From Dehalococcoidia bacterium (GTDB taxonomy: Bacteria > Chloroflexota > Dehalococcoidia > Bin125), in contig CAXXSR010000001.1 in the NCBI GenBank assembly GCA_963662615.2, positions 1,056,001 through 1,120,000 on the forward strand: 64,000 nucleotides of DNA. The letters run 5' to 3'. Both the position numbers and the translations under genes were made by a program. This document shows positions 32,879 through 47,222 of the stretch, piece after piece; the first letter of the stretch is position 1; the number at the start of each line of letters is the position of its first letter. The notes under the pieces are model-generated. The model saw only the letters and a program-made list of their open reading frames with translations. It was not told where the DNA came from and did no database searches.

Positions 32879-34399
32879 GTGCGCTCGCCTGTCGCCCCCC
32901 GTTCCGGCGTCCCACGTCACAGGCGCCCGCCGCGGGCGCTCCTCTTCGGCCTCGTCGCGGTCGCCGGCTTGCTCCTCTTCGCCTGCGGCGACGACGTCCC
33001 CCGCCGCGCCGTGCACCTCTCCGAACTCGACAACGACATCGGCCCGGTGACGGCCAACTTCGTTGACCGCGCCCTCGATCACGCCGAGAACCATGACGCC
33101 GCCGCCTGGATCCTCCTCCTCGACACGCCCGGCGGCCTCGTCACCGCCACCGACGACATCGTCCAGCGCATCGCGAAGGCAACCGTGCCTGTGGCGGTCT
33201 ACGTCAGCCCCGCCGGCGCCCGCGCCGCCTCCGCCGGCACCTTCATCACCATGGCCGCGCACGTCGCCGCCATGGCGCCCAGCACACAGATCGGCGCGGC
33301 CACGCCGGTGGGCGCGGGCGGCGCGGACATTGAGGGCTCCTTGGGCCGCAAGATCCTCAACGACGCCTCCGCCGACATTCGCGCCATCGCCCAGCTGCGC
33401 GAGCGCAACCAGGAATGGGCCGAAAGCGCGGTCCGCGAAGCGGTCTCCGCCACCGCGGAGGAGGCCGTCGAGCTCAACGTCGTCGACCTCGTCGCCACCG
33501 ACGTCACGGATCTCCTCGCCCAGATCGACGGGCGCAGCATCGTCCTCGCCGGCTTCGTCGCGGGCGAGCCCGCCGGCCCCGCCCTCACGATTCGCACCCG
33601 CGGCGCGCCCATCGTTGAGACCAACATGAACTTCTTTGAGAACGTGTTGGACTTCGTGGCGGACCCCAACATCGCCTTCCTGCTCATTACCCTCGGTGGT
33701 CTCGCCTTGGTGATCGAGCTGTTCTCGCCGGGCCTCCTCGGCCCCGGCATCTTCGGTGTGATCGCGCTCCTGCTCGGTTTCTTCGCCTTGGGCAGCCTGG
33801 ACACCAACCCGGCCGGGCTCGCCCTGCTCGCCATCGCCCTCGTCCTCATCGTCGCGGAGATCTTCGTGGCCGGCTTCGGAGTGCTCGGGATCGGCGGGAT
33901 CATCGCCCTCTTCTTCGGCGGCCTCTTGCTGATCAGCGACTCCCCCAACGCCGAAAAGGTCTCGCTCTGGCTTCTCTTCGCTGTCGTAGCCGCCGTCGCC
34001 GCCACGGTCCTCGCCCTCTTCCTCCTGATCGTGAGCGACCGCCGCAAGCAGAAGGTGGCCACCAGCCTCGCCGACCGTATGGTCGGGCAGACGGGCGTCG
34101 TCCGCTCCACTCTCGACCCCGTAGGTACCGCGCTCGTCGGCTCCGAACTCTGGACCGCCCGCAGCGAGGGCGGATCCCTCCCCGCCGAGACCCCCGTCCG
34201 CGTTGTCGGCGTCGACGGTCTCCGCCTCCTCGTCGAGGCCCCCGCGGCTGCCGAGGGCAGCCAGGACTCCGAAGACACTCCGGACACCGAAGACACCGTC
34301 GCGCCACCGTCCCCGCCCGACGCGCCGCCGCTCGAGCGCCCGCCGGGGTCCAGCGCCGCTAGGGAGGGGTCGGAGAAGCCGCCGGCGGACGCAGGCTGA
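32879..34399 (+). CDS. nfeD: NfeD-family membrane-bound serine protease
   Basis: LDTPGG, AASAGTFI, IGAATPV, TM helices, C-terminal OB fold (ELWTARS). Confidence 0.9.
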   Translation: MRSPVAPRSGVPRHRRPPRALLFGLVAVAGLLLFACGDDVPRRAVHLSELDNDIGPVTANFVDRALDHAENHDAAAWILLLDTPGGLVTATDDIVQRIAKATVPVAVYVSPAGARAASAGTFITMAAHVAAMAPSTQIGAATPVGAGGADIEGSLGRKILNDASADIRAIAQLRERNQEWAESAVREAVSATAEEAVELNVVDLVATDVTDLLAQIDGRSIVLAGFVAGEPAGPALTIRTRGAPIVETNMNFFENVLDFVADPNIAFLLITLGGLALVIELFSPGLLGPGIFGVIALLLGFFALGSLDTNPAGLALLAIALVLIVAEIFVAGFGVLGIGGIIALFFGGLLLISDSPNAEKVSLWLLFAVVAAVAATVLALFLLIVSDRRKQKVATSLADRMVGQTGVVRSTLDPVGTALVGSELWTARSEGGSLPAETPVRVVGVDGLRLLVEAPAAAEGSQDSEDTPDTEDTVAPPSPPDAPPLERPPGSSAAREGSEKPPADAG

Positions 34400-35165
34400 C
34401 CTCACCGGCAAGAAAGCGTCGCCGCTCCCCCGTCTCCAGGCGCACCACCAGCGCCCCCTCCTCCGTCACGTCCTCGGCCACCCCCTCCACCACACCACCG
34501 GCCTGGTCCGCCAGGCTGACGGGCCGTCCCAGCGTCTCCAGCCGTGCCCGCCACCCCTGCAGCAGCGCCGGCGTGGTGGCACCGTCGTAGGCCCGTTCAA
34601 AGGCGTTCAGCGTCGCCGCCAGGATCGGCTCGCGCGCCAGCGGCCTGCCCCGCTCCAGCGCCAGGCTCGTGGCCGGTCCCTCAATGGCGCCGCCGAACGC
34701 GCCGGGGTCGAAGTTGACGTTGATGCCAATCCCCACCAGCGCGAAGCGCGGCCGCCCCCCCACCCACTCGCTCTCCACCAAGATGCCCACGAACTTCTTG
34801 CCCCGCAGGTGCAGGTCGTTCGGCCACTTGATCCGCGGGTAAAGGTTGACCACCTGCTCCACCGCGTTCGCGACCGCCACCGCCGTCAGTATGCTCAGCC
34901 GCTGCAATCGCGCCGCCGAAGGCCGCACCACGATGGTGAAGTAGAGGTTTTGCCCCCCCGGGGAGACCCAGGACCGGCCGCGCGTCCCCCGGCCCCGGCT
35001 CTGCTCCTCCGCGATGACGACGGTGCCCGTCGGCGCTCCGTCCTCCGCGGCGGCGCGAGCGTCGTCCATCGTCGACGTGGTGCGCAGGCGATAGATCAGC
35101 CGCCGCCCCACCCGCCGCGTGCGCAGGTCCTCGGCCACGGCCTTGCGGCTCAGTCGGACTCCCAC
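34359..35165 (-). CDS. birA: Biotin-protein ligase (no HTH)
   Basis: STMD, EEQSRGRGTRGRSW, IKWPND, KFVGILVE, GIGINVN. Confidence 0.93.
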   Translation of the reverse strand: MGVRLSRKAVAEDLRTRRVGRRLIYRLRTTSTMDDARAAAEDGAPTGTVVIAEEQSRGRGTRGRSWVSPGGQNLYFTIVVRPSAARLQRLSILTAVAVANAVEQVVNLYPRIKWPNDLHLRGKKFVGILVESEWVGGRPRFALVGIGINVNFDPGAFGGAIEGPATSLALERGRPLAREPILAATLNAFERAYDGATTPALLQGWRARLETLGRPVSLADQAGGVVEGVAEDVTEEGALVVRLETGERRRFLAGEVSLRPPAASPTPP

Positions 35166-35224
35166 GCCCCCACGGTAGGCCGCATCACTGTGCGGAGCGA
35201 AACCGTGCGCAACGCGAGCAAAGA

Positions 35225-35370
35225 GCAAGCCCCCGGCTCGCGCCGGGGGCTTGTCAGATTTCGTGCCCAGGTGATGCTCCTAGGACTCACCCACCTCCTT
35301 CGATGCGCGGTCGTCGGCTCCATCCCTGGGCAGCAAACTATGTCCCAAGTCGCATCACCTCCTTTCCTGC
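35225..35370 (-). ncRNA. Candidate structured small RNA / sORF transcript with two SD motifs
   Basis: TACACT -10 like box at 35376-35381, AAAGGAGGTGAT and GAAGGAGGTG, long-range complementarity, terminal hairpin. Confidence 0.45.
35226..35253 (-). terminator. GC-rich hairpin, probable terminator of the small RNA candidate
   Basis: CAAGCCCCCGGC-TCGC-GCCGGGGGCTTG. Confidence 0.65.
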
Positions 35371-35661
35371 TCTCCAGTGTACCAGGCCTTCCTGATCCCC
35401 ACTATGGCGGCAAAGACCTGCCCCCCAATGGCTGGGAGGGACCGCCTCCGGTAGGCGCTGGCGTCGGCCCGCCCGCTCCGATGCCGAGCGACCCGAAACC
35501 GCGGCGATTACCCGAAATTGTTCGACGGCTTGGCTGACCTGCTCAAGCCTCTCCTGATAAACCGCTTAGGGTTTGATCGATCTCGTACATGACGAGGGCC
35601 CTATGAAAAGCCGTACGAAAAACTACACGCCTTGGGATTGTCAAGGTCGCGATGCTGGGGA

Positions 35662-35970
35662 CTACATCTCCATCACTTCGGCGACTTCAACTGTGCCCAT
35701 TTCAAGGAACGGGCACCCCTTCACCATTGCAACAGCAGCATCCATGCTGTCGGCTTTCACGATAGAAAAACCCATCAAGGGATTCGACCCACCATCGTCT
35801 GAGACGCCACCGGAGCTTACGGTCTTAGCCTTTCCCAAGGGAGTACCGGGGTTGACCACGGCATCCCCCAGGCCGCCGACCCAGGATTCGAATCTCGCCT
35901 TTTGTTTGGCTCCCTCTTCAGGGCTCTCAGGCATTTTCCCACCGTGATAGGCAAGGACGTATTCAGACAT
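35662..35970 (-). CDS. YciI-like protein
   Basis: YVLAYHGG...GFSIVKADSMDAAV...CPFL...VEVAE; AGGAG SD. Confidence 0.85.
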   Translation of the reverse strand: MSEYVLAYHGGKMPESPEEGAKQKARFESWVGGLGDAVVNPGTPLGKAKTVSSGGVSDDGGSNPLMGFSIVKADSMDAAVAMVKGCPFLEMGTVEVAEVMEM

Positions 35971-36036
35971 CGATCTCCTCTTTCTCATTTGCAGTTCGTA
36001 AGACGCTCTAGTTTCCGAACCAACGATCGTGAGGTC

Positions 36037-37386
36037 TTACAGATTGCCCGTCACCTCTTTGACCCCCTCCTCCACGATGGTGAGGATCGCGTCCACCTCC
36101 TCCGCCGTCGCCACCAGCGGTGGCGCCAGCACGAAGGAGTCCCCGCGAATGCGCGTGATCAGACCCCGACGTTGGCAGGCGTTCCGCAGCCGCACGCCCA
36201 TGCGCATCTCCTCGTCGAAGGGGACGTCGTTCTCGGGATCTTGCAGTAGGTCCAGGCCGCACATGAAGCCCAGCCCCCGCACATTGCCCACGTAGCGGTT
36301 CTCGCCGAGCAGCATCAGCCCGTTCAGAAGCTGCTCGCCCCGTGCCGCAGCGTTCTCCACCAGCCCCTCCTCTTCGATGATGGCGAGGTTGCGCAGCGCC
36401 ACCGCCGCCGCAACGGCGTGACCCGAGTTCGTATAGCCGTGCATGAACTTGACGCTGGGGTCGGCGCCGGTGATCGTCTCGAACACCTCCCGCGACCACA
36501 CCGACGCCCCCAGCGGCATGTACGCGCTCGTGATCGCCTTCGACACCGACATCAGGTCCGGCAGCACCCCAAAGTGCTCCAGCGCGAACCACCTCCCCGT
36601 GCGGCCGAAGCCCGTGATCACTTCGTCCGCGATCAGGAGCACCTCGTAGCGGTCGCAGACCTCGCGTAGCTGACGGAAGTAATCCGGCGGCGGCGGGTGG
36701 ACGCCACCGCCGCCCTGCACCGGCTCCGCGATCACCGCCGCCACCGTCTCCGGCCCCTCTCGCTCGATCGTCTCCGCAATGTTGTCAACATTGTTGTTGC
36801 CGGGATCAATGCGCGCCCCGCCGCTCGGCATCGGCTCCACGCTCGCCGCCGGCACGATCTCGTGTACCCGCGGTTCAAAATTGGGGTAATACATGGACAT
36901 CCCCGTCGCCGACATGCAGGCCAGGGTCGTCCCGTGGTACCCCTCCACCCGGCTGATCACCTTGACCTTCCCCGGCCGCCCCTTCATTGCCCAGTAGAAA
37001 CGCGCCGTCTTAAAGCTGGTCTCGTTTGAATCCGCGCCCGAGGTGCCGAAAAACACCGCCTGCATGTTGTCGTAGGCCAGCTCCACCAGCTTGGCCGCCA
37101 GCTCAATGGCCGGCTCGTTGCTGGAGCCCACGTAACTGCTGTTGAAGGCCAGCCGCTCCATCTGCCGCGCGGCGGCCTCCGCCAGCTCTCGGCGCCCGTG
37201 CCCCACCGCCACGTTCCACAGCGAGGAGAGGCCGTCAATGTAGCGCTGCCCGTCGTGCCCGTAGAGGTAGATCCCTTCCCCTCGCTCGTACAGCAGCGGC
37301 TCCTGGTGATCGCTGGGATGGGAGAGCGGATGCACCCAGTGGGCGAGATCTTTCCGCACCAGCTCCCGGTACCGTGCATCGTCCAT
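36037..37386 (-). CDS. Class III aminotransferase
   Basis: YIDGLSSLW, YHGTT, IAEPVQG, ADEVITGFGRTG, VSKAIT, HGYTNSGH. Confidence 0.95.
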   Translation of the reverse strand: MDDARYRELVRKDLAHWVHPLSHPSDHQEPLLYERGEGIYLYGHDGQRYIDGLSSLWNVAVGHGRRELAEAAARQMERLAFNSSYVGSSNEPAIELAAKLVELAYDNMQAVFFGTSGADSNETSFKTARFYWAMKGRPGKVKVISRVEGYHGTTLACMSATGMSMYYPNFEPRVHEIVPAASVEPMPSGGARIDPGNNNVDNIAETIEREGPETVAAVIAEPVQGGGGVHPPPPDYFRQLREVCDRYEVLLIADEVITGFGRTGRWFALEHFGVLPDLMSVSKAITSAYMPLGASVWSREVFETITGADPSVKFMHGYTNSGHAVAAAVALRNLAIIEEEGLVENAAARGEQLLNGLMLLGENRYVGNVRGLGFMCGLDLLQDPENDVPFDEEMRMGVRLRNACQRRGLITRIRGDSFVLAPPLVATAEEVDAILTIVEEGVKEVTGNL

Positions 37387-37422
37387 GCTGAGTCCTTCCT
37401 TGCGATCCACCCTCGACGGCGA

Positions 37423-39024
37423 TCAGCCCTGCCGCCCCGCCAGCAGCTCCCGCGCGACCGCCCGATCATCCCACGGCTCCACCGTCTCGCCAACGATGAG
37501 CGTCTGCTCCGCGCCCTTCCCGGCGATCAGCACGTAATCCCCCGCCGAGGCCAGCATGAACGCCCGCCCGATTGCCCGTCGGCGGTCGGGCTCCTCCTCG
37601 AAATCGGCGCCCGCCTGGCGTCCTGCCGCCTCCATCGCCTTCGCGATCTCCCGCACGATCGCCGCCGGATCCTCCGAGCGCGGATTCTCACTGGTGAGCA
37701 CCGCGTAGTCGGCGAACTCCGCCGCCGCCGCTCCCATCCCGCCGCGCCGGCCCGGGTCGCGCTCCCCCGCGCAGCCGAAGACAACGATCAGCCGGCCCTG
37801 CACCAGCGCTCTCACCTCCGCCAACACCACGCCAAACGCCGCCGCCGTCGCGGCCGCATCCACCACCACCGTGAACGGTTGCCCCGCCTCGATCCGCTCC
37901 ATCCGGCCCGGCACCTCGCGCAGTTGGCCAATCCCCCGCGCCATCGCCTCCGGCCCCACACCCAGCGCCCAGCAAGCGCCCGCCGCCGACAGCGCATTGC
38001 GCACGTTGAAGCGCCCCGGCAGCGCCAGCCGCGCCGTGGCGGCGCCCGCCCGCGTCGCGATCCGGAACTCGGAGCGCTCCACCTCCAGCACCACGTCCCC
38101 CGCCGATACGTCCAGCTCGCCGCCATTGACGCCACCTCGGCCGTTGAAACCCCCGCCGTCGAAGCCAACGCGGACCATTGCGGCCGAGGTGGCGGCCCCC
38201 ACGGCTTCGGCATACGGGTCGTCGGCATGGACCACGCCGCGCTTCGGGGTCCCCTTCGCCACGGACGTATCCAGCGCCTGGAACAGGCGCAGCTTTGCCG
38301 CCAGGTACTCCTCGCGCGTCTTGTGGAAATCCAGATGGTCGTCGCTGAGGCCGGTAAAGACGCCCACGTCGTACTCGCAACCGTCCAGACGGTGCAGCGC
38401 CAGCCCGTGCGACGTCGACTCGATCACCGCGTACGTTACCCCCGCCGCCACCATCTCCGCCAGCAGCGACTGCACCTGCGGCGCTTCTGGGCTGCTCTGC
38501 GTGATCGTGTTCATGCGCCACTCGTCGCCCACCTTGAACTGCACGCCACCGATGATCCCGGTGCGCCGGCCCGCCGCCTCCAATATTGACGATGTCAAGT
38601 AGCAGGTCGTGCTCTTGCCGTCCGTGCCCGTCACCCCCACCACGGTGAGACGGCGCGCCGGGAAGCCGTGGAACGCCGCCGACAGGGCCGCCAGCGCGAC
38701 GCGCGTATCGGCGACCTCCACGACGCTGACGTCGTCGCGCCCGAGCAACGGTTCCCACTGCGCTCGACGGTCGCTCTGCACCACGACGGCCTGGGCCCCG
38801 GCCGCCACGACCGCGTCCAAGAAGCTGTGCCCGTCCACGTGAAAGCCCGGCACGGCCACGAAACAGGCGCCGGCTTGCAGGTCACGGGAATCCTGACTGA
38901 TCTGGGTCACGGCGCCACCACTGGCGACACCGCGGGCGCCACCGCGGGCGACACCGCCCTGGGGGCCGTGCTGCGCCTTGACGGGCGTGGCCTCCAGCAG
39001 GGCGGCAAGAGTACGATCCGTCAC
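37423..39024 (-). CDS. murE: MurE-like Mur ligase
   Basis: DSR, GVTGTDGKST, ESTSHGL, DHLDFH, VPGRME, FGCAGERD, ENPRSE, IAGKG. Confidence 0.85.
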   Translation of the reverse strand: MTDRTLAALLEATPVKAQHGPQGGVARGGARGVASGGAVTQISQDSRDLQAGACFVAVPGFHVDGHSFLDAVVAAGAQAVVVQSDRRAQWEPLLGRDDVSVVEVADTRVALAALSAAFHGFPARRLTVVGVTGTDGKSTTCYLTSSILEAAGRRTGIIGGVQFKVGDEWRMNTITQSSPEAPQVQSLLAEMVAAGVTYAVIESTSHGLALHRLDGCEYDVGVFTGLSDDHLDFHKTREEYLAAKLRLFQALDTSVAKGTPKRGVVHADDPYAEAVGAATSAAMVRVGFDGGGFNGRGGVNGGELDVSAGDVVLEVERSEFRIATRAGAATARLALPGRFNVRNALSAAGACWALGVGPEAMARGIGQLREVPGRMERIEAGQPFTVVVDAAATAAAFGVVLAEVRALVQGRLIVVFGCAGERDPGRRGGMGAAAAEFADYAVLTSENPRSEDPAAIVREIAKAMEAAGRQAGADFEEEPDRRRAIGRAFMLASAGDYVLIAGKGAEQTLIVGETVEPWDDRAVARELLAGRQG

Positions 39025-39114
39025 GCGCCGCTCCCCTCACCAGAGCAGCATCGCGCCCCCTGCAGGGCGTCGCAACGGCGGGGGTGGCACGGCGCGACGG
39101 CACTCGAGGTCGTG

Positions 39115-39519
39115 GCGGCCAGGCGACCTGTAAGCCGAGTTCTGTATCCCTCCCGCCGTGCCCGCCCGCCGTTGCCGGCGCGCGGGAGCAGGAAGGACGG
39201 TGGCCATCTCTCTACGACGACGGTTACCCGCCGCCTCCAGCGACCTACCCGAGGGCGGAGTGAGGCGCTCCCTGGCCCTCCTATTTGGTCTTGCTCCGGG
39301 CGGGGCTTGCCCAGCCGGCCGGTCACCCGACCGCTGGTGCGCTCTTACCGCACCATTTCACCCTTACCCTCCCCGAATAGGAAGGGCGGTATGTTTCTGT
39401 GGCGCTATCCGTGAGGTCGCCCTCCCTGGGAGTTACCCAGCGCCCTGCCTCAATGGAGCTCGGACTTTCCTCGACCCTTCCTCGCAGGAAGGGCCGCGAC
39501 CACCCGGTCGCCTGGCCGC
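39115..39519 (-). ncRNA. rnpB: RNase P RNA (class A)
   Basis: GAGGAAAGTCCGAGCTCC and ACAGAACTCGGCTTAC universal motifs; GCGGCCAGGCGACC terminal pairing. Confidence 0.97.
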
Positions 39520-39557
39520 ACGTCGATCCTACTACGTCGCGCCCACAGCTCCGGCAG

Positions 39558-39971
39558 CTACAGCACTTGCGACAGCCGTCCGTCCAGCGCCGCGTTCGCC
39601 AGCGCGTCGGCGCGCGCGTTCTCGGCGCGCGGCACATGCTGGACGCTGAAGCCCTCCAGCCGCTCAATGAGCGCGGAGAGTCGCGCGAAGAGCGGCTTCA
39701 ACTTCGCGTTGCGAACGCGGTAGCGCCCCTCCAACTGTCGCACCAGCAGCTCGGAATCCAAATTTAATTCCAGGGCGGTTGCGCCCAGGGCCAGCGCCGC
39801 CTCAACGGCGGCGATGGCGCCTCGGTACTCAGCGACGTTATTGGTGGCGCGGCCAATGGCCTCCGCCAGAGCCCGCAGCTCCCCGCCGTTCTCGTCCAGC
39901 ACCGACACCCCGTAGGCGGCCGGTCCGGGATTGCCGCGGGCGGCGCCGTCGGCGTAGGCGATCAGGCGCAC
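39558..39971 (-). CDS. rnhA: Ribonuclease HI
   Basis: YADGAARGNPGPA, TNNVAEY, DSELLVRQ, HVPRAENARADALAN. Confidence 0.95.
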   Translation of the reverse strand: MRLIAYADGAARGNPGPAAYGVSVLDENGGELRALAEAIGRATNNVAEYRGAIAAVEAALALGATALELNLDSELLVRQLEGRYRVRNAKLKPLFARLSALIERLEGFSVQHVPRAENARADALANAALDGRLSQVL

Positions 39972-40014
39972 GGTGCACTGCCTCGCGCTGCGCCGCCCGC
40001 GCTGCCGCGTGGGA

Positions 40015-41442
40015 TCATGGGCGCAGGATCGTGCGCACGCGATCGTCGTCCACCAGCACCTTCTCCACCAGGTCGCGCACCAGCGCCTGCCGCTCCTCGA
40101 ACGGCAAGCGTCCCCACTCACTGCGCACCCGTTCGCGCTGCTGTTCCTGGTGGCGCCGGCGATCGCTGTCGGAGGCCTGCGCCTCGGCCCGATGAGCCAG
40201 CGTCGCCAGATCCGCCTCGGCCAGCAGATACTCTCCCGCGACCTCGTGCGCCGTCTCCCGAAGCTGCTCCGGCCGCAGCCGGCCGCCGGCGGCGAGCCCC
40301 AAGCTCCCGCTCAACTGCCGGTCCAGCGACCGCATCCGGCTCCGCACCCGCGCTTCCGCCATGGCCGTCTCCGCCGCTACCGCCTTCGAATCGCCGGCGC
40401 TCACCACCGTCGATTGCAGCGCCCCGCTCGCTTCACCCGTCAGGTGCCGCACCACCTCGGCCTCCAGGTCATCGGCCCGCTGCGTGTGGTACGCCCCCAC
40501 CGACTGATTCGTACGCGCCTCGCTCTGGTAGTAGCGATAGGTGCTCTTCACCACCTCCCCATCTCGACGCGTCCACTGCTGCCGTCGTGTGACGCCGATC
40601 ATCCGCGTGCCGCCGTCATTGCAGTGGACCAAGCCCGACAACAGAAAGTGGCTGGGGCGCGCCGGCGCCGCCGGCCGGCGGCGGCCCTGCATCCGCTCCT
40701 CCACGGCGTCGAAGTCGCTCACCGACACGATCGCGGTGTGGTTGCTGGGCACCCGTACCCCAAAGCGCGCATAGGTTCCCAGATAGACGCGATTGCGCAG
40801 CAGGTCGCGAATGGTGACCATGCTCCAGTTGCCGTCCCGGCGCGTGCGGTAGCCCTCTTCATTCAGACGCTTGGCGATCCGGCGGATGCCGAGCCCTTCC
40901 CGCAGGTAGAGGCGAAAGATATGGCGCAGCAGCGCCGCCTCGTCCTCTACGATCGCCAAACGCCCGTCCGCTCCGGCCCGATAGCCGTACGGCGGTCGCC
41001 CCAACACCTGCCCTTGGACTGCGAGTCGCCGCATCGCCTCCCGCACCCGCTCGCCCACCCCCGAAGACGCCCGTTGCGCCGACCACAGTTTCAGCATCCG
41101 CGCCTCGTCCAGCGCCCCTTCTTCCATGGAGATGACCCGCGCCCCGCTGGCCGTGATCTGAAAGTAGGCCCGCGCCGCCTCCGTAGCGCCCGCGCCCAGC
41201 CGCTCGAACGACGCCGCCACCACCACCAGGAACCCCTTCTCCGGCCTGCTGAGGTACTCCAGCAACTGCCGCAGACCCGGACGTTCCCCGTCGCCGCTGG
41301 GATCGAGGAATGCCGCCGCCGGCTCGTAGCCGTTCGCATCGCAGTAGGCCAGGAAATCGTCGTTTTGCTGCGACAGAGAAGCGCCGCGTGGCGCGTCGGC
41401 TCGCCTTCCCGGAAATTCGCTGAAGTAGCCAACGGCCCGCAT
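40015..41442 (-). CDS. Large serine recombinase-family protein with degenerate active site
   Basis: Resolvase-like N-terminus (RPGLRQLL), PPYGY, IAKRLNEEG, LRNRVYLG, LLSGLVHC, coiled coil; YxRxS and DRxxR motifs not conserved. Confidence 0.85.
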   Translation of the reverse strand: MRAVGYFSEFPGRRADAPRGASLSQQNDDFLAYCDANGYEPAAAFLDPSGDGERPGLRQLLEYLSRPEKGFLVVVAASFERLGAGATEAARAYFQITASGARVISMEEGALDEARMLKLWSAQRASSGVGERVREAMRRLAVQGQVLGRPPYGYRAGADGRLAIVEDEAALLRHIFRLYLREGLGIRRIAKRLNEEGYRTRRDGNWSMVTIRDLLRNRVYLGTYARFGVRVPSNHTAIVSVSDFDAVEERMQGRRRPAAPARPSHFLLSGLVHCNDGGTRMIGVTRRQQWTRRDGEVVKSTYRYYQSEARTNQSVGAYHTQRADDLEAEVVRHLTGEASGALQSTVVSAGDSKAVAAETAMAEARVRSRMRSLDRQLSGSLGLAAGGRLRPEQLRETAHEVAGEYLLAEADLATLAHRAEAQASDSDRRRHQEQQRERVRSEWGRLPFEERQALVRDLVEKVLVDDDRVRTILRP

Positions 41443-41463
41443 GCTGCTCCTAGGGCAGTGCTC

Positions 41464-42162
41464 TTACCGCAAGAAGACGATCCGTCCACAGGCAGGACAG
41501 TTCACCACCTCGGCCCCGCGCCGCGCCCGCGTCAGCATCATGGTCGGCAGCGTCAGCCGACAGGCGCCACAGACGCCGCCCTCCGCCACGGCCACGACCA
41601 GCGGATTGCGGCTGCGGTGGTCGTCGTAGACGGCCAAGTCCCCCTCTTTCATCGAGGCCCGCTGCTCGCCCGCTTCCACATCGATCGAATCGGATTGCTC
41701 GACCAGCTCGCGGCGTTGCGTCTCCAGCTCCGACTCCCGCTCGCTCCAGTCGGCCTCCACACGCTTCAACAGCCGCACCAGGTAATCGCGCGCCTCCCGG
41801 TCCAGCTCCTCCCGCTCCAGCTGGGCCAGCCCGCTCTCTTCCTGCGCCTTCAGCCCACGCCGCAGAGCAAATATCTCCTCCTGCAGGCTGCGCAGCTCGC
41901 GAGATTCGGTGATGGCGCCGCTGTAGAGCTTTTCCTCTTCCGCCGTGATCTTCAGCCGTGACGCCTCGGCCTCCGCTTCTTTCTTCTTGCGATCGCCGGT
42001 CGCCTCCTTGAGCAGCCCCTTCTGAGCGTCCACTTCGCCACGCAGCGCATCCAGAAACGGCGGCCGGCCCAACAACGCCTCCACCTCTTTGAGCCGCTTC
42101 TTGATCGTGTCTAACCGCCCATCCACCTCCTGGAGGGTGATCATCTCCGCGATGTTGTCCAC
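41464..42162 (-). CDS. Coiled-coil C4-type zinc-ribbon protein (DUF164-like)
   Basis: LQEVD...coiled coil...CGACRL...CPACGRIVF; GGAG SD before GTG 42162. Confidence 0.9.
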   Translation of the reverse strand: MDNIAEMITLQEVDGRLDTIKKRLKEVEALLGRPPFLDALRGEVDAQKGLLKEATGDRKKKEAEAEASRLKITAEEEKLYSGAITESRELRSLQEEIFALRRGLKAQEESGLAQLEREELDREARDYLVRLLKRVEADWSERESELETQRRELVEQSDSIDVEAGEQRASMKEGDLAVYDDHRSRNPLVVAVAEGGVCGACRLTLPTMMLTRARRGAEVVNCPACGRIVFLR

Positions 42163-42216
42163 GCGATTCTCCGCTTCGATTAGGTAACCACAGTCTACGA
42201 ACCGCGACTCGCGCCG

Positions 42217-42288
42217 CGCAAGCACCACCGCGGGCACCACCGCAAGCACCACCGCAAGCACCACCGCAAGCACCACCGCGGGCGCCGC
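42217..42288. repeat. 12-bp tandem repeat CGC(AA/GG)GCACCAC x6
   Basis: Visible in divergent intergenic region; last copy degenerate. Confidence 0.9.
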
Positions 42289-42327
42289 TTCCTCTGGTTG
42301 CAAGCCTCTGGTTGCTAGGATACTGCC

Positions 42328-42873
42328 GTGACCCGGCAACGTCCGCGCCCGGCCGACAGTGAGGCCTCCCTCTCGTTCAATGTCTCCACCCTGCTCGCCG
42401 AGCCCATCGGCAGCCAGCGGCGCCACACCATCGCCGAGGCGCCGTTCACCTTCAACGGCTTCGTCACGCGCGTGGCGGGAACCGTCGATTTCCTTCGCAC
42501 CGACGGCTCCATCATGGTCACCGCGGACCTGTCGCTGCACATCGAGGAGATCTGCGGCCGCTGCCTCCGACCCTTCGTAACGCCCTTCACCGTTCGCTTC
42601 AGCGAGGAGTTCTGGCCTGCGTTCGACCCTCTCACGCGCGAGCGCGTGCACGTCCCCGAAGAGCGCGAAGGCTTTCCCATCAGCGACGGGCACCTCGACC
42701 TTGGCGAAGCCATCCGCCAATATGTGGAGATGGCGCGCTCCATGCGGCCGCTCTGCGGGCGGCCGGCCTGCCCCGCGGTCGCGGAGCCGGTGCCCCTCGA
42801 CCGCCGCGACGAGGCGGCCGTCGACAGTCGCTGGGCCGCGCTCCAAACCCTGCGCGACCACCTCAACGAGTGA
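42328..42873 (+). CDS. yceD: YceD/DUF177 protein
   Basis: CGRCL, LDLGEAIRQ, PLC...C, DSRWAAL; upstream of rpmF. Confidence 0.9.
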   Translation: MTRQRPRPADSEASLSFNVSTLLAEPIGSQRRHTIAEAPFTFNGFVTRVAGTVDFLRTDGSIMVTADLSLHIEEICGRCLRPFVTPFTVRFSEEFWPAFDPLTRERVHVPEEREGFPISDGHLDLGEAIRQYVEMARSMRPLCGRPACPAVAEPVPLDRRDEAAVDSRWAALQTLRDHLNE

Positions 42874-42905
42874 TCGGCGCGCGCGGCCTGCGAGAGGACT
42901 AGGCT

Positions 42906-43091
42906 GTGGCCCCGCTACCGAAACGCAAATATGCCAAAACCCGACAACGGCTGCGGCGGCACCACCTTGTGCAACGCCGCGCCACCTTGACCACCTGTCC
43001 CACCTGCCACTCCACCACGGTCGCGCATCAGGTCTGCTACGAGTGCGGCCGCTACCGGGGCCGGCAAGTGCTGGAAGTCGGCGAGGAGTAG
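42906..43091 (+). CDS. rpmF: 50S ribosomal protein L32
   Basis: PLPKRK...CPTC...HQVCYECGRYRGRQV. Confidence 0.95.
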   Translation: MAPLPKRKYAKTRQRLRRHHLVQRRATLTTCPTCHSTTVAHQVCYECGRYRGRQVLEVGEE

Positions 43092-43093
43092 GC

Positions 43094-44044
43094 ATGGGCG
43101 CCGCGCTTACCGCCCCGGCCTGGCTCTTCCCAGGACAGGGCGCCCAGAAGGTGGGTATGGGCCGCGACCTTTACGAAGCGATCCCGCAAGCACGCGAGAT
43201 CTTCGAGCGCGCCGACGCCGCCCTCGACCGCCCCCTCTCCGAGATCATCTTCAACGGCCCGGAAGAGACGCTGGTGCAGACGGTCAACGCCCAGCCCGCC
43301 ATCTTTACCACCAGCCTCGCCTGCCTGGCCGGCGCGCGGGCGCTCAACGCCGATCTTCGCGCGCCCCCCGCCTTCGTCGCCGGCCACAGCCTGGGCGAAT
43401 ACACCGCCCTGGTCGCCGCCGGCTCCCTCGCAATCGAAGACGGCGTCCGCCTGGTCCAGCGGCGCGGCCGCCTCATGCAACGGGCCGGCGAAGAGCAGCC
43501 CGGCACGCTCGCCGCCATCTTGGGCCTGGGCGAAAATGAGATCGAAGCCGTCTGCCTGGAGACCGGCGCCGAGATCTGCAACGTCAACGCCCCCACCCAG
43601 ATCGTCGTGGGCGGCAGCCACCCCGCCGTCGCCCGCGCCATGGACCTCGCCCGGGCCCGCGGCGCCCGCCGCACCCTTCCCCTCCGGGTCAGCGCCGCCT
43701 TCCACTCCTCCCTCATGCAGCCGGCCGCCGACACCATGAAGCGCGAGCTGGAGCGGGTGTCCTTCCAGCAACCCCAAGTGCCCCTGGTCGCCAACGTCAC
43801 CGGCGCCGTCATCAATTCCAGCGACGCCGTCCGCACCGAACTTGCCCAGCAAGTGGGCCGCGCCGTCCGCTGGCGCGAGTCCGTCGAGTTCATGCTCGCC
43901 GCCGGCGTCCGCACTTTCGTCGAGATCGGCCCCGGCACCGCGCTCACCAGCCTGGTCAAGGCCGCCGCCAAGGACCTCAAGCTCACGCTCACGCTCACGC
44001 TGCACAACTTCAACACCATCGACTCGATCCGCGGCGGCCGCTAG
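43094..44044 (+). CDS. fabD: Malonyl-CoA:ACP transacylase
   Basis: FPGQGAQ, AGHSLGEY, VSAAFHS, EIGPG. Confidence 0.96.
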   Translation: MGAALTAPAWLFPGQGAQKVGMGRDLYEAIPQAREIFERADAALDRPLSEIIFNGPEETLVQTVNAQPAIFTTSLACLAGARALNADLRAPPAFVAGHSLGEYTALVAAGSLAIEDGVRLVQRRGRLMQRAGEEQPGTLAAILGLGENEIEAVCLETGAEICNVNAPTQIVVGGSHPAVARAMDLARARGARRTLPLRVSAAFHSSLMQPAADTMKRELERVSFQQPQVPLVANVTGAVINSSDAVRTELAQQVGRAVRWRESVEFMLAAGVRTFVEIGPGTALTSLVKAAAKDLKLTLTLTLHNFNTIDSIRGGR

Positions 44045-44061
44045 CCGCCCAAGGGCGGACC

Positions 44062-44538
44062 GTGGCCAAGATCTACAAGCGAGCCCGCGTTCGCGCCTTC
44101 CGCGCCCTCTTCGAGGCGGAGTTCGGCCGCTGTGCCGCTCTGGATGCCCTCCGCCGCGACCTCGCCGGCCCCGAGGGCAGCCACGCCACCGTCTCCAACG
44201 CCGACCGTGCCTACGCCGAGGCCCTGGTCCAGGGCCTGCAGCAACACCGTGAGCAGCTGGACCGCATCATTGCGGAAACGGCGCCCCGCTGGCCGCTGGA
44301 CCAGATCGCCGTCGTGGACCTCACCATCCTCCGCATTGCGCTCTACGAGCTCCTGGTCAATAATGCCGCCGTCCCCACCGCGGCCGTGATCAACGAAGCC
44401 GTGGAGCTGGCCAAGACCTACGGCGCCGACGCGAGCTCCCGCTTTGTCAACGGCGTCCTGGGAACTGTCAGCCGCGACCGCCTGGCCGCGCCGGTCGCTC
44501 GGAAACCGGAATCGGAGGAACCGCATGGCTCTCTATGA
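44062..44538 (+). CDS. nusB: Transcription antitermination factor NusB
   Basis: [27 protein letters not shown]. Confidence 0.95.
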
Positions 44539-44782
44539 GCGGATCCGCGGGATTATCGAGAACCAGTTGGGCGTCGACGCGGAGCAGGTCACGCTCCAAG
44601 CCTCGTTCGTCGACGATCTCGGCGCCGACTCGCTCGACCTTGTCGAACTGATCATGGCCTTCGAGGACGAGTTCAAAGACGAGGTGAAGGAGCTGGAGAT
44701 TACCGACGAAGAGGCCGAAGGCCTCGCTACCGTCCAGGCCGCCATCGATTTCCTCGTCAGCAAGGGCGTGCCCAAGGACTGA
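44525..44782 (+). CDS. acpP: Acyl carrier protein
   Basis: [18 protein letters not shown]. Confidence 0.97.
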
Positions 44783-44798
44783 TCGTCGCCCCGGACGG

Positions 44799-44892
44799 CG
44801 CCACTGTCTTCGCACCACTGTCTTGGCGCCACCCTCTTCGCGCCACGGTCTTCGCGCGCAACGGTCTTCGGCCCACTGTCTTCGCGGCCCAC
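44799..44892. repeat. Degenerate ~14-bp tandem repeat (CCACTGTCTTCG core, ~6 units)
   Basis: Visible between acpP and tatB. Confidence 0.75.
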
Positions 44893-44959
44893 AGCGGCGC
44901 GCTAAAAGATCGGATACGCTGGAGCGGGCGCGCGTCCGCGCAGCGCACGCGGGAGCGGC

Positions 44960-45487
44960 ATGGAACTCTTCGGCATCGGCATCCTTGAGATCCTGCTCAT
45001 CTTCGTGCTCTTCGCCATCATCTTCGGTCCTCACCGCCTCCCCGAGATCGCCGCACAGTTCGGTCGCGCCGTCCGCGTCCTGCGCGCCTACGCCCGCGAC
45101 TTCCGCGACGAATACCTCACCGACATTGAAGAGATGAAGGATGAGGTGCTCGATCTGCGCCAGGACCTGCAGGCCACCGACGCGGAATTGCGCCGCGAGG
45201 TCCAAGACGTGGATCAGGAACTCCGCATGGCCGTGCGCGAAGCGGAGCGCGACGCCGAGAGCGTCGTGCGCGAGACCAAGGAGGGGGCGCTGGGCAAGGA
45301 GTCGCCCCCATCACCGGCTGGCGGGAACGCGTCTCGCCAAGAGCAAGCAATCCCGCGCCGGCGCTTCGCCAGGCGCCGCGCGCGGACGAGCGCGCCTCCC
45401 TCCTCCCGCCCGACCAACGTCATCTCCATCGCCGCGCGCCGGCCCGCCCGCGGGGCGCCCTCTCGCGGGGTGAAGGATCGCCCCTAA
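44960..45487 (+). CDS. tatB: TatA/TatB translocase subunit
   Basis: GIGILEI...IFGPHRLPE; long charged tail; upstream of tatC. Confidence 0.8.
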   Translation: MELFGIGILEILLIFVLFAIIFGPHRLPEIAAQFGRAVRVLRAYARDFRDEYLTDIEEMKDEVLDLRQDLQATDAELRREVQDVDQELRMAVREAERDAESVVRETKEGALGKESPPSPAGGNASRQEQAIPRRRFARRRARTSAPPSSRPTNVISIAARRPARGAPSRGVKDRP

Positions 45488-45493
45488 GCCACC

Positions 45494-46267
45494 GTGGCCA
45501 CCCAGCCCGACCCAGAGAGCGACCCCGACCCCGCCGCCGGTCAGCTCCTCACCCTGGGCGAGCACCTCGCGGAGCTGCGTCGGCGCCTGACTATCTCGCT
45601 CCTCGCTCTTCTCCTCGCCACAGTCTCCGCCCTCGTCTTCGCCGGGGACATCATGAATTACTTGCTGGAGCCGGCCCGTGACGCCGATCCGGGCTTTGAC
45701 CCCATCTTCACCGAGCTGCTCGGCTACGTCTCGGCCTACGTCAAGGTGGGCCTCCTCGTCGGCGTCGCCGGGGCCATGCCCGTGGTGCTCTACCAGATGC
45801 TCGCCTTCATCAAGCCCGGCCTTACCAAGCGGGAGCGCCGCTGGGTGATCCCCATCGTCCTGCTTGGCGCCCTCTCGTTCGCCGGCGGCGGCGCCTTCGC
45901 CTTCTACATCGCCTGGCCGCCCGCGCTCGACTTCCTCCTCAATTTCGGCGACGATATCGCCGACGCCGAAATTCGCATCAACAACTACATTGACATGCTC
46001 TCCCGCTTCATCTTCTGGACCGGCCTGGTCTTCCAGATGCCCCTGTTGCTCATGGGCCTGGGAGCGCTGGGGCTGGTCCGCGCCCGGCGTCTCATCCGTG
46101 GGTGGCGCTGGGCCGTGATCGGCACCTTCCTCATCGCCGCCCTCATCACCCCCTCCATCGATCCCGTGACGCAGGCGACGGTTGCCCTGCCCCTCATGGC
46201 CCTCTACGGGCTGGGCGTGCTCCTGGTCTGGCTCGTGCAGGATCGCGGCCTCGGCCGCCCCCTCTGA
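45494..46267 (+). CDS. tatC: TatC translocase
   Basis: EHLAELRRRL, FIKPGL, FQMP, ITPSIDP. Confidence 0.95.
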   Translation: MATQPDPESDPDPAAGQLLTLGEHLAELRRRLTISLLALLLATVSALVFAGDIMNYLLEPARDADPGFDPIFTELLGYVSAYVKVGLLVGVAGAMPVVLYQMLAFIKPGLTKRERRWVIPIVLLGALSFAGGGAFAFYIAWPPALDFLLNFGDDIADAEIRINNYIDMLSRFIFWTGLVFQMPLLLMGLGALGLVRARRLIRGWRWAVIGTFLIAALITPSIDPVTQATVALPLMALYGLGVLLVWLVQDRGLGRPL

Positions 46268-46463
46268 CCGCCGCCCCCTCCCACGCACGACAGCCCTCAC
46301 GGCTGAGCCTGCCCTGAGAACCCTGTTGAACCTCGTTATGCCCCTGAGGATGCCCTCACAAGGATGCGATGCCCAGCCGGCCGTGTTACTTCTGGGGAGC
46401 TACCGCTGAGAGAGTGGCGGCCGCGGCGCACGAACCCGCGGCGACGAGAGCCACGGTGTCGCC

Positions 46464-47093
46464 ATGGACCTCGAACAACTTCACGACGTCAACGAGCGCA
46501 TCGCGTCTTGCATCGCCTGCCCGCTCGCCGCCGGCCGCACCCGCACCGTCCCCGGCGATGGCGACCCCAACGCCGAGCTGATGTTCATTGGCGAAGCGCC
46601 GGGCTTTCACGAGGACCGCCAGGGGCGGCCGTTCGTGGGCCAGTCCGGCAAGATCCTGGATGACCTCTTGGCCACCATTGGCCTCAGCCGCGCCCACGTC
46701 TTCGTGGCCAACATGGTCAAATGCCGCCCCCCCAGCAACCGCGACCCTGAGATCGCCGAGATGGCCGCCTGTGAGCCGTTCCTGAGCGAGCAGATTGCCG
46801 GCATCCGCCCCAAGCTGATCGTCCCCCTCGGGCGCATCGCCCTGCAGTACTTCGTCCCGGGAGCGACCATCTCACGCACGCACGGCAAATCCGTCCGCGC
46901 CGGCGTCCACCTCATCTACCCCGTCTATCATCCCGCCGCCGCCCTCCGCCAAGGCGCCTTACTCCGCGTCCTGCGCCAGGATTTCCAGCGCATCCCCGAA
47001 CTGCTCGCCGGCGCCCCGCGCCCCACGGTGCAGGAAACCGTGCAGGAAGAGGCCCCCGCCCAGGAAAGCGCATCGCAGCTGCCCCTTCTTTAG
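46464..47093 (+). CDS. Uracil-DNA glycosylase family 4
   Basis: IGEAPG, PFVG, KCRPP, YHPAAALR with Fe-S cysteines. Confidence 0.95.
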   Translation: MDLEQLHDVNERIASCIACPLAAGRTRTVPGDGDPNAELMFIGEAPGFHEDRQGRPFVGQSGKILDDLLATIGLSRAHVFVANMVKCRPPSNRDPEIAEMAACEPFLSEQIAGIRPKLIVPLGRIALQYFVPGATISRTHGKSVRAGVHLIYPVYHPAAALRQGALLRVLRQDFQRIPELLAGAPRPTVQETVQEEAPAQESASQLPLL

Positions 47094-47130
47094 CCGCAGT
47101 GCGCCGGGCCCCATCCTGCCGTACCGTGGT

Positions 47131-47214
47131 CGCATGACCAGGCGCATGACCAGGCGCATGACCAGGCGCATGACCAGGCGCATGACCAGGCGCATGACCA
47201 GGCGCATGACCAGG
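47131..47214. repeat. Perfect 12-bp tandem repeat CGCATGACCAGG x7
   Basis: Directly visible just upstream of rnj. Confidence 0.97.
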
Positions 47215-47222
47215 CTGGCCCT

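Follow-up and report, generated by a model that had tools for sequence, protein, structure and literature searches.

Introduction

As enzymes, serine integrases are familiar from phages, transposons and developmental excision elements. In a stretch of 64,000 nucleotides from a Dehalococcoidia bacterium (positions 1,056,001 to 1,120,000 of contig CAXXSR010000001.1, assembly GCA_963662615.2; the whole stretch is called the window below) one gene encodes a 475-residue homologue of these large serine recombinases (LSRs). It lacks three of the residues crucial to catalysis and lies in a cluster with the genes for a zinc-ribbon protein, RNase HI (rnhA) and RNase P RNA (rnpB). An initial annotation of the window had proposed that the protein is catalytically dead and domesticated, and both parts of the proposal are borne out by the loss of the catalytic set in the orthologues, by conserved synteny and by purifying selection, to which single-copy vertical inheritance can be added. 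We consider it probable that the gene is a host gene of LSR origin whose product, an exapted and non-catalytic protein, binds or bridges DNA at specific sites as a regulator or an architectural factor.

The nearest functional precedent is the Tn3/gamma-delta resolvase at its accessory sites, where dimers bind, bend and synapse DNA without catalysis. Binding is to accessory sites II and III, and tnpA/tnpR are repressed. The architectural role of resolvase is the subject of PMC2428073 and PMC9943657. This resolvase is a catalytically competent, transposon-encoded enzyme, whereas the window protein would be the permanently non-catalytic product of a host gene. Fixation of a mobile-element enzyme as a single-copy, vertically inherited host gene is known from the REP (repetitive extragenic palindromic)-associated tyrosine transposases; these belong to another superfamily, however, and keep their catalytic residues, which the window protein has lost. 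The crucial residues of Tn3 resolvase are given as Y6, R8, S10, D36, R68 and R71 by Olorunniji & Stark (PMC2794168), in whose study site binding was not strongly inhibited by any mutation. A literature search, with most subscription journals outside its reach, turned up no paper on this Dehalococcoidia family, nor one on any large serine recombinase that is inactive or domesticated.

Overall fold and domain organization

The DNA-binding recombinase domain, which the initial annotation had called preserved, is recognized by Pfam over the whole of its profile (PF07508, 77.6 bits, E = 9.5e-22, cut-off 21.1, profile positions 1–102 of 102) and is the most conserved part of the protein. The Resolvase match (PF00239, 37.6 bits, cut-off 23.3) spans residues 20–145 and takes in profile positions 13–144 only, leaving out the strand and loop that bear the catalytic serine. 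Zn_ribbon_recom (PF13408) reaches 24.3 bits, just under its cut-off of 25.3. No NCBIfam equivalog scores above its cut-off; those for LSRs (XisF, CcrA/B/C) fall far under theirs and match only from about residue 120.

An AlphaFold2 (AF2) model built with 71 homologues has a mean predicted local distance difference test score (pLDDT) of 86.2, and residues 11–20 (block mean 59), 260–262 and 345–350 are poorly defined. The predicted structure has the full LSR fold, with a catalytic-like domain, a long helix, the recombinase domain and a zinc-ribbon domain with its coiled coil (Table 1). The best matches identified in the PDB by Foldseek (E = 1.8e-21 to 1e-14) are full-length integrase–DNA complexes of SPbeta (9y66, 1.8e-21), PhiC31 (9tep) and Bxb1 (9iu2) together with the C-terminal domains of A118 integrase (4kis); they are followed, over the N-terminal part, by the small resolvases of gamma-delta and Tn3 and by the catalytic domain of TP901-1. 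Searching the PDB by sequence leads to the same assignment. The family profile is collinear in hhalign with three active relatives from the edge of the homology search (446 columns, probability 100), and the coiled-coil region of the model aligns with that of active LSRs and of A118 integrase.

In domain order and in fold over its full length the protein resembles SPbeta SprA/YokA, PhiC31 Int, Bxb1 Int and Listeria A118 Int, with which it shares the resolvase-fold domain, helix E, the recombinase domain, the ribbon with an inserted coiled coil and the C-terminal strands. Unlike these integrases it has no nucleophile serine, no R8, no R71 and, in the focal lineage, three zinc ligands fewer; its gene is single-copy, syntenic and vertically inherited, with neither a mobile element nor attachment (att) sites.

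Conservation is concentrated in the parts that would contact DNA. Residues G185, R187, N194, T200, R201, W206, S207, M208, R212, D213, L215, R216, N217, Y220, G222 and Y224 are invariant in 53 aligned sequences, and the invariant or near-invariant stretches of the recombinase domain read GRPPYGY and WSMVTIRDxLRNRVYxGTY. Near-invariant stretches are also found in the ribbon domain (MIGVxRRQxW and YRYYQ...TNQS..YHTRRA) and in the C-terminal strands. In the helix E equivalent, W120 is invariant and R134 and A141 nearly so.

A shorter form of about 420 residues, without the usual N-terminal strand, is found in 23 of 25 genomes of genome family f6. Its representative L035 (genome G029) retains the recombinase and ribbon domains with all cysteine ligands, which suggests that these two domains are the functional core.

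The active site and the zinc ligands

The motifs quoted in the initial annotation (YFSEF, ERLGA, CNDG and YYQS) are all present, as parts of MRAVGYFSEF, FERLGA, HCNDGG and YRYYQSE. In the hhalign register Y6 corresponds to Y6 of resolvase, S8 to R8, F10 to the nucleophile S10, E80 to D67, R81 to R68 and A84 to R71; a MAFFT alignment that includes the genome's own canonical LSR paralogues arrives at an identical register. R8, S10 and R71, three of the six crucial residues, are absent, and residues 9–21 include no Ser, Thr, Cys or Tyr. The catalytic loss first read from the window holds for these three residues and does not extend to Y6, D36 and R68, which are retained.

Two alignments of the protein family were used, with 71 homologues (A1) and 53 sequences (A3), and the full six-residue set occurs in no member of either (0/71 and 0/53). 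Among the 71, position 8 (R8) is Ser in 38, Arg in 26 and Thr in seven. Position 10 (S10) carries 15 residue types (14 Pro, seven Tyr, seven Ser, six Phe, six Cys, six Thr, five Arg, five Ala and others). The positions of D67 (80; 18 Glu, 18 Ala, six Arg, five Ser, five Asp, others), R68 (81; 24 His, 14 Arg, seven Asn, seven Ser, others) and R71 (84; 13 Ala, 12 Gly, 12 Pro, others, with four Arg) are similarly mixed. R8 and S10 occur together in five members of A1 and seven of A3, and R68 is absent from all of those. Among homologues the nucleophile loop may be as short as about 8 residues or longer than 40. A search of 1.84 billion cluster representatives returned 142 clusters at E <= 1e-30; among the 101 full-length representatives listed, YxRxS and DRxxR are both present only in the three weakest (E ~1e-30). 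To judge from these alignments, the active site has been lost from the family as a whole.

A still-active recombinase or invertase, its nucleophile shifted to Ser8 or Thr8 (or to Thr10 in some lineages) and its substrate an unrecognized chromosomal site, would account for the Ser or Thr at position 8 of 45 of the 71 members, for the Y-F-R-V-T of two divergent members described below, for the retention of Y6 and D36 (with R68 in the focal protein) and for the conservation of the entire synapsis apparatus of helix E and coiled coil. Such an enzyme would, however, have no conserved candidate nucleophile, given the mixtures at positions 8 and 10, and would work with the equally mixed R68 and R71 equivalents, with a loop of widely differing length and with the full catalytic set in no member. 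Repeats, whether inverted or direct, are absent around the locus, and the order of genes, unchanged in 78 of the 80 loci, leaves no invertible or excisable segment apparent. We regard a shifted active site as very unlikely.

The two divergent members (L141 and L142, genome family f27) read M-R-x-I-G-Y-F-R-V-T, with R8 kept and Thr at the nucleophile position; the equivalents of D67, R68 and R71 are S, H and P. They look like an intermediate state of active-site decay.

C274 of the four zinc ligands is present in 71 of 71 members, while 33 members have the trio C277, C307 and C316. In the focal protein the latter three are replaced by G, S and G, and C274 alone remains. Partial loss of the ligands, as noted at the outset, is therefore correct for the focal protein (three of four) but is not a property of the family, 33 of whose 71 members keep all four. 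The zinc site appears to have decayed stepwise.

Three canonical LSR genes are encoded elsewhere in the genome of the window (G000, contig C1): L001 (1681603–1684935), L003 (1641247–1644567) and L004 (939285–942542). Their products share the Pfam Recombinase domain (56.8–80 bits) with the focal protein and, unlike it, keep the catalytic motifs YxRVSTDxQ and DRxxR; they match it only at E = 1e-8 to 1e-11. The tblastn match in the L003 region includes an in-frame TAG.

Distribution, inheritance and selection

All 24 other genomes of the same genome family carry one full-length orthologue (47–66% identity). Of 401 genomes sampled from the class (completeness >= 85%), 227 match at E <= 1e-30, nearly always with one copy; without the unpublished genome G505 the tally is 226 of 400. 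The distribution is all-or-none by genome family, with presence in f1 (30/30), f16 (30/30), f24 (12/12), f31 (5/5), f89 (7/7), f6 (23/25) and f27 (19/21) and absence from f14 (0/13), f83 (0/11) and f85 (0/12). In a phylum sample of 301 genomes the eight with a match at E <= 1e-30 are all Dehalococcoidia, with none from other classes. A scan of species-representative genomes gave 371 encoding stretches, and the 80 of these that were listed all derive from metagenome-assembled genomes (MAGs) titled Dehalococcoidia, Chloroflexota/Chloroflexi or ‘uncultured Chloroflexia’; the ESM Atlas clusters of the family also come from Chloroflexota. The source records give the proteins no annotation beyond ‘recombinase family protein’ or ‘site-specific DNA recombinase’.

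Inheritance follows the taxonomy. In a maximum-likelihood tree of 27 orthologues all six multi-member genera are monophyletic, label changes are at the minimum (12) and the genome family of the window is set apart from three other families (support 100/99). Pairwise distances for the LSR-like protein are correlated with those for its Zn-ribbon neighbour (r = 0.90; Mantel test, 0 of 999 permutations as high), and the LSR-like protein is the slower-evolving of the two (mean p-distance 0.485 vs 0.634). Taken over the whole gene, the Nei–Gojobori (NG86) ratio of non-synonymous to synonymous substitution (dN/dS) lies between 0.074 and 0.31 in the 10 pairs of orthologues with dS < 0.6, and the N-terminal domain gives 0.08–0.28 (10 close pairs); the pair L012/L014 was left out because an in-frame TAG in L014 shifts the codon alignment. 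All domains are under purifying selection. Many uncultured Dehalococcoidia carry the gene on the chromosome, conserved, in single copy and passed on vertically.

Selection of this kind bears on the explanation that the gene is what remains, in decay, of the integrase of a prophage or integrative element: a functionless pseudogene in waiting. Catalytic residues and zinc ligands have indeed been lost, interrupted copies occur in two MAGs, and expression was not seen among contigs of RNA libraries, whose gaps are no evidence of silence. Yet the frame is full-length and intact in nearly all of the 227 genomes at identities down to about 30%, dN/dS lies at 0.07–0.31 in every domain, dozens of residues are invariant and the protein is more conserved than that of the adjoining Zn-ribbon gene. 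The composition is host-like with no mobile genes nearby, and the interrupted copies come from two MAGs in which errors of assembly are likely, one fragmented and the other a single contig of 81% completeness. Decay is extremely improbable.

In five small genomes (94–99% complete) the family gene is the sole PF07508 match (5/5), and the Resolvase-domain matches lie in the same open reading frames (ORFs), except for one 83-residue sub-threshold fragment with a stop codon. The family gene is thus independent of any active serine recombinase. These genomes tell against a non-catalytic regulator of, or decoy for, active serine integrases, one that would occupy an attB-like site near rnpB or form mixed inactive complexes, since a resident partner is evidently unnecessary. 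For such a role speak the retention of the DNA-binding and coiled-coil parts used in site recognition and integrase–integrase contacts, the three canonical LSR paralogues in the genome of the window and the position of the locus next to a stable RNA gene, the vicinity of such genes being a kind of place that mobile elements target. The PADLOC defence models, on the other hand, gave no family for the LSR-like protein or for either neighbour, no att-like site was found, and the near-invariance of the DNA-contact regions across the class is easier to reconcile with a fixed host target than with an arms race. A decoy is in our view unlikely.

Gene neighbourhood and age of the cluster

Synteny was counted over 80 loci from named MAGs. 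The Zn-ribbon gene lies upstream on the same strand at <=200 bp in 78 of them (mostly 7–66 bp) and at 243 and 263 bp in the other two. rnhA follows within 300 bp in 64 loci and does not adjoin in 16, while rnpB lies at most 1.5 kb downstream, on the same strand, in 64, elsewhere in the flank in nine and not in the flank in seven. The arrangement is the same in 31 loci of close and class-level relatives. Among eight members at 30–40% identity the Zn-ribbon gene adjoins in seven and rnpB lies downstream in six; in four of the eight rnpB comes directly after the LSR-like gene, without rnhA. In several lineages rnpB lies within about 50 bp after the LSR-like gene. What stays constant is the partnership with the Zn-ribbon gene and, to a lesser degree, with rnpB. 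Because rnhA is missing from 16 of the 80 loci, including that of the closest relative (66% identity), the link to RNase HI that the initial annotation had suggested is not obligatory.

In three loci (L029 of genome G039, L060 and L105) rnpB is on the opposite strand to the LSR-like gene or upstream of the Zn-ribbon gene, so co-transcription with rnpB is not universal. Within 3 kb of the short form L035 no Zn-ribbon gene, rnhA or rnpB was detected.

Where class genomes have no LSR-like gene the flanking genes adjoin, as Zn-ribbon–rnhA–rnpB in two genomes and as Zn-ribbon–rnpB in two; in a fifth (L037) the Zn-ribbon gene is present, with no rnhA or rnpB detected in the flank. A paper on the HP0958 family (PMC3372290) places rnhA next to DUF164 genes of other phyla; in Borrelia it shows the gene for RNase P RNA in such a position as well. 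Since the cluster is found both without the LSR-like gene and in other phyla, the cluster is the older and the LSR-like gene was inserted into it within Dehalococcoidia. The Zn-ribbon–rnhA–rnpB association, at first taken as the setting of the recombinase, therefore predates it.

This order of events weakens the idea that the protein acts on RNA or R-loops with RNase HI and RNase P RNA instead of on duplex DNA. The idea draws on the clustering with rnhA (64/80) and rnpB (73/80 somewhere in the flank) and on the short distance to rnpB in several lineages. rnhA is nevertheless dispensable at the locus, the Zn-ribbon–rnpB cluster predates the LSR-like gene, the genome has a normal RNase P protein gene elsewhere, and all domains bind duplex DNA in solved LSR complexes; an RNA-directed role is distinctly unlikely. 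Substitution of the LSR-like protein for the RNase P protein was ruled out, rnpA being present elsewhere in the genome of the window (93.5 bits).

The locus in the window

The four genes of the cluster run along the minus strand (Table 1) with spacings of 21 bp from the Zn-ribbon stop codon to the LSR-like ORF, 43 bp to rnhA and 42 bp to rnpB. The LSR-like frame is intact, with AGGAG 6 nt 5' of its ATG, in agreement with the first reading of its length and distances. Also as first described, its composition is host-like (GC content at third codon positions, 0.842 vs 0.84–0.91 in the neighbours) and neither phage genes nor att-like repeats lie nearby: the 13 neighbour ORFs scanned within ~10 kb are all housekeeping, with no phage gene among them. 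Over ~20 kb the surroundings comprise hisC, hisD, NfeD, birA, an aminotransferase and murE (via Pfam) on one side and yceD (via Pfam), rpmF, fabD, nusB, acpP, tatA, tatC, UDG and ftsK on the other.

Table 1. Features of the cluster and segments of the LSR-like protein, in positions of the window.
Feature	Position	Strand	Basis
Zn-ribbon protein gene, CT398/DUF164-type coiled-coil, 232 aa, GTG start	41464..42162	(-)	Pfam, orthologue alignment
Catalytically dead LSR homologue (P0001), 475 aa + stop	40015..41442	(-)	ORF, Pfam, AF2, Foldseek, hhalign
Resolvase-fold N-terminal domain without active site, residues 1–112	41107..41442	(-)	Block pLDDT 83–96 except loop
Nucleophile-loop remnant, residues 8–21	41380..41421	(-)	Sequence, AF2
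Long helix equivalent to helix E, residues 113–142	41017..41106	(-)	AF2 helices 113–126, 128–142
Recombinase (DNA-binding) domain, residues 150–255, most conserved part	40678..40995	(-)	PF07508
Zinc-ribbon-domain fold, residues 266–335	40438..40647	(-)	Beta hairpins 280–291, 297–307 (AF2)
Coiled-coil hairpin as in LSR coiled-coil motif, residues 352–421	40180..40389	(-)	AF2 helices 352–385, 391–421
RNase HI gene (rnhA), 137 aa, GTG start at 39971	39558..39971	(-)	RVT_3 68.9 bits, RNase_H 38 bits
RNase P RNA (rnpB), bacterial class A	39115..39515	(-)	RF00010, 294.8 bits, model positions 1–367 of 367
Promoter-like element TTGCGC-N18-TAGACT and conserved 17-nt leader CCTAATCGAAGCGGAGA, 5' of the Zn-ribbon GTG	42168..42221	(-)	Inferred

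The Zn-ribbon protein of the window matches PF02591 (Zn_ribbon_9, 42.6 bits, cut-off 29.1) and PF24481 (CT398_CC, 27.8 bits, cut-off 27) in Pfam; the NCBIfam model CdsZ gives 28.3 bits, far under its cut-off of 275. C198, C201, C222 and C225 are invariant in 53 sequences and form a C4 zinc ribbon. The GTG start was picked from the orthologue alignment and the conserved leader. In NCBIfam the RNase HI of the window scores best, at 145.5 bits (cut-off 326), against the N-terminal part of RNase H/acid phosphatase.

The putative promoter and leader upstream of the Zn-ribbon gene are kept, by eye, in nine close relatives (L042–L048, L050 and L074) of the 16 displayed. A consensus promoter scan did not call the element (0 promoters; 2 terminators vs 1.4 expected). 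The leader exceeds the length needed for a ribosome-binding site.

The three RNA-library runs (5–6% of words) gave contigs on rnpB only (39115–39546) together with two tiny low-depth pieces at 40627–40842. The data are contigs, so that a lack of contigs over the protein genes does not show these to be silent, and many of the contigs on rnpB stem from the conserved RNase P RNA of other organisms. Complex prediction for the LSR-like protein and its Zn-ribbon neighbour (alignments A3 and A2; score 0.01, mark 0.32) bears on binding neither way.

Tandem arrays of a 12-bp unit lie in or near intergenic DNA at 42217–42279 (5.2 copies), 38911–38957 (3.9) and 47119–47227 (~7). The first two flank the rnpB-to-Zn-ribbon cluster and are 69–77% identical to each other; in a public DNA run the locus is shorter by one repeat unit at 42234. 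As binding arrays these two were rejected, being absent from relatives, with 24 period-12 arrays of unrelated units genome-wide. The genome also contains several 18-mers at 14–27 copies, e.g. families around GGCGCGAGCCGCCACCAA and CCCTTCGACAGGCTCAGGACGAACGG, which resemble dispersed REP or miniature inverted-repeat transposable elements and have no evident link to the LSR-like gene. The murE ORF (37423–39024, minus strand) has an N-terminal extension of ~38 residues that crosses a 12-bp tandem array; the Mur ligase domains start at residue 39, and the true start is probably further downstream than listed.

Discussion

The protein of the window is an LSR-derived pseudo-enzyme that has been fixed as a host gene, and the evolutionary case is unusually clean and broad. 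Since the residues that cut DNA have been lost from a gene that is conserved and vertically inherited, the protein probably only binds or bridges DNA now. The invariance of its DNA-recognition regions across the class argues for one conserved host target rather than diverse att sites.

A plausible history would begin with an integrase-type gene that became fixed between the CT398/DUF164 Zn-ribbon gene and rnhA/rnpB in an ancestor within the Dehalococcoidia; the active site would then have been lost, with vertical single-copy inheritance since. Dimerization would have been kept through the N-terminal domain and the long helix, both of which are under purifying selection, and the near-invariant recombinase and ribbon domains would recognize a specific, conserved duplex DNA sequence. 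Two bound sites could possibly be paired through the coiled coil, cutting being impossible.

In nearly every locus translation of the LSR-like protein would follow directly on that of the Zn-ribbon protein, across a tight and often almost overlapping junction. This suggests that the two are made together, and they probably serve the same pathway. That pathway may be transcription, perhaps of the downstream rnpB. For ML1638, a member of the CT398 family, AlphaFold3 predicts binding to RNA polymerase beta', according to a 2026 preprint (10.64898/2026.07.15.738315), and predicted polymerase binding of the Zn-ribbon family makes a transcription-linked role plausible. More tentatively, and as a possibility that we would rate well short of even, the protein of the window may represent a sequence-specific DNA-bridging adaptor for an RNA polymerase-associated CT398-type protein. 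It would control transcription (e.g. of RNase P RNA) or local chromosome architecture, with recognition and synapsis kept without catalysis, and would be the first member seen of a class-wide exapted family.

Several observations weigh against a non-catalytic DNA-binding or DNA-bridging host protein. As to the chemistry, the focal protein retains Y6, D36 (as D47) and R68 (as R81), and a serine, S8, precedes the nucleophile position by two residues. Ser stands at position 10 in 7 of 71 members in A1 and 9 of 53 in A3, and the two f27 members examined (L141 and L142) read Y-F-R-V-T; some family members could, formally, still possess residual chemistry. As to binding, the loss of three of four zinc ligands in the focal lineage could weaken the outer DNA contact of LSRs. 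No target came to light in the searches made: there are no att-like repeats, direct and inverted repeats at 34000–48000 amount only to low-identity GC-rich matches, the only inverted repeat in 39000–42400 is a 14-nt palindrome inside a coding region, visual footprinting in 16 relatives revealed no dyad or operator upstream of the Zn-ribbon gene, and consensus scans of the window gave no DNA target. DNA binding, dimerization and the link to RNA polymerase are properties that we infer.

The evolutionary evidence has its own exceptions. One close pair has a dN/dS of ~1 in the recombinase domain, but its dS of 0.012 reflects too few changes. The copy in G001 (L014/L044; 130 contigs) has one in-frame TAG, and that in G030 (L033; a single contig, 81% completeness) has two frameshifts and lies in three frames; these interruptions are probably assembly errors rather than decay. 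Finally, the Zn-ribbon–rnpB cluster is older and more widespread than the LSR-like gene, and the adjacency may mark a former landing site, not a shared function.

Under their annotation as ‘recombinase family protein’, genes of this family could be miscounted as mobile-element markers in Dehalococcoidia MAGs. If the proposed role is correct, the family would provide a natural ‘binding-only’ LSR in which site recognition and control by the coiled coil can be studied, perhaps a source of programmable modules for binding or bridging DNA, and a handle on the still unexplained CT398/DUF164–rnhA–rnpB cluster, which recurs across bacterial phyla. An old, large and vertically inherited family that keeps the recognition and synapsis scaffold of an LSR without its chemistry would then be a clear case of recombinase exaptation in bacteria.

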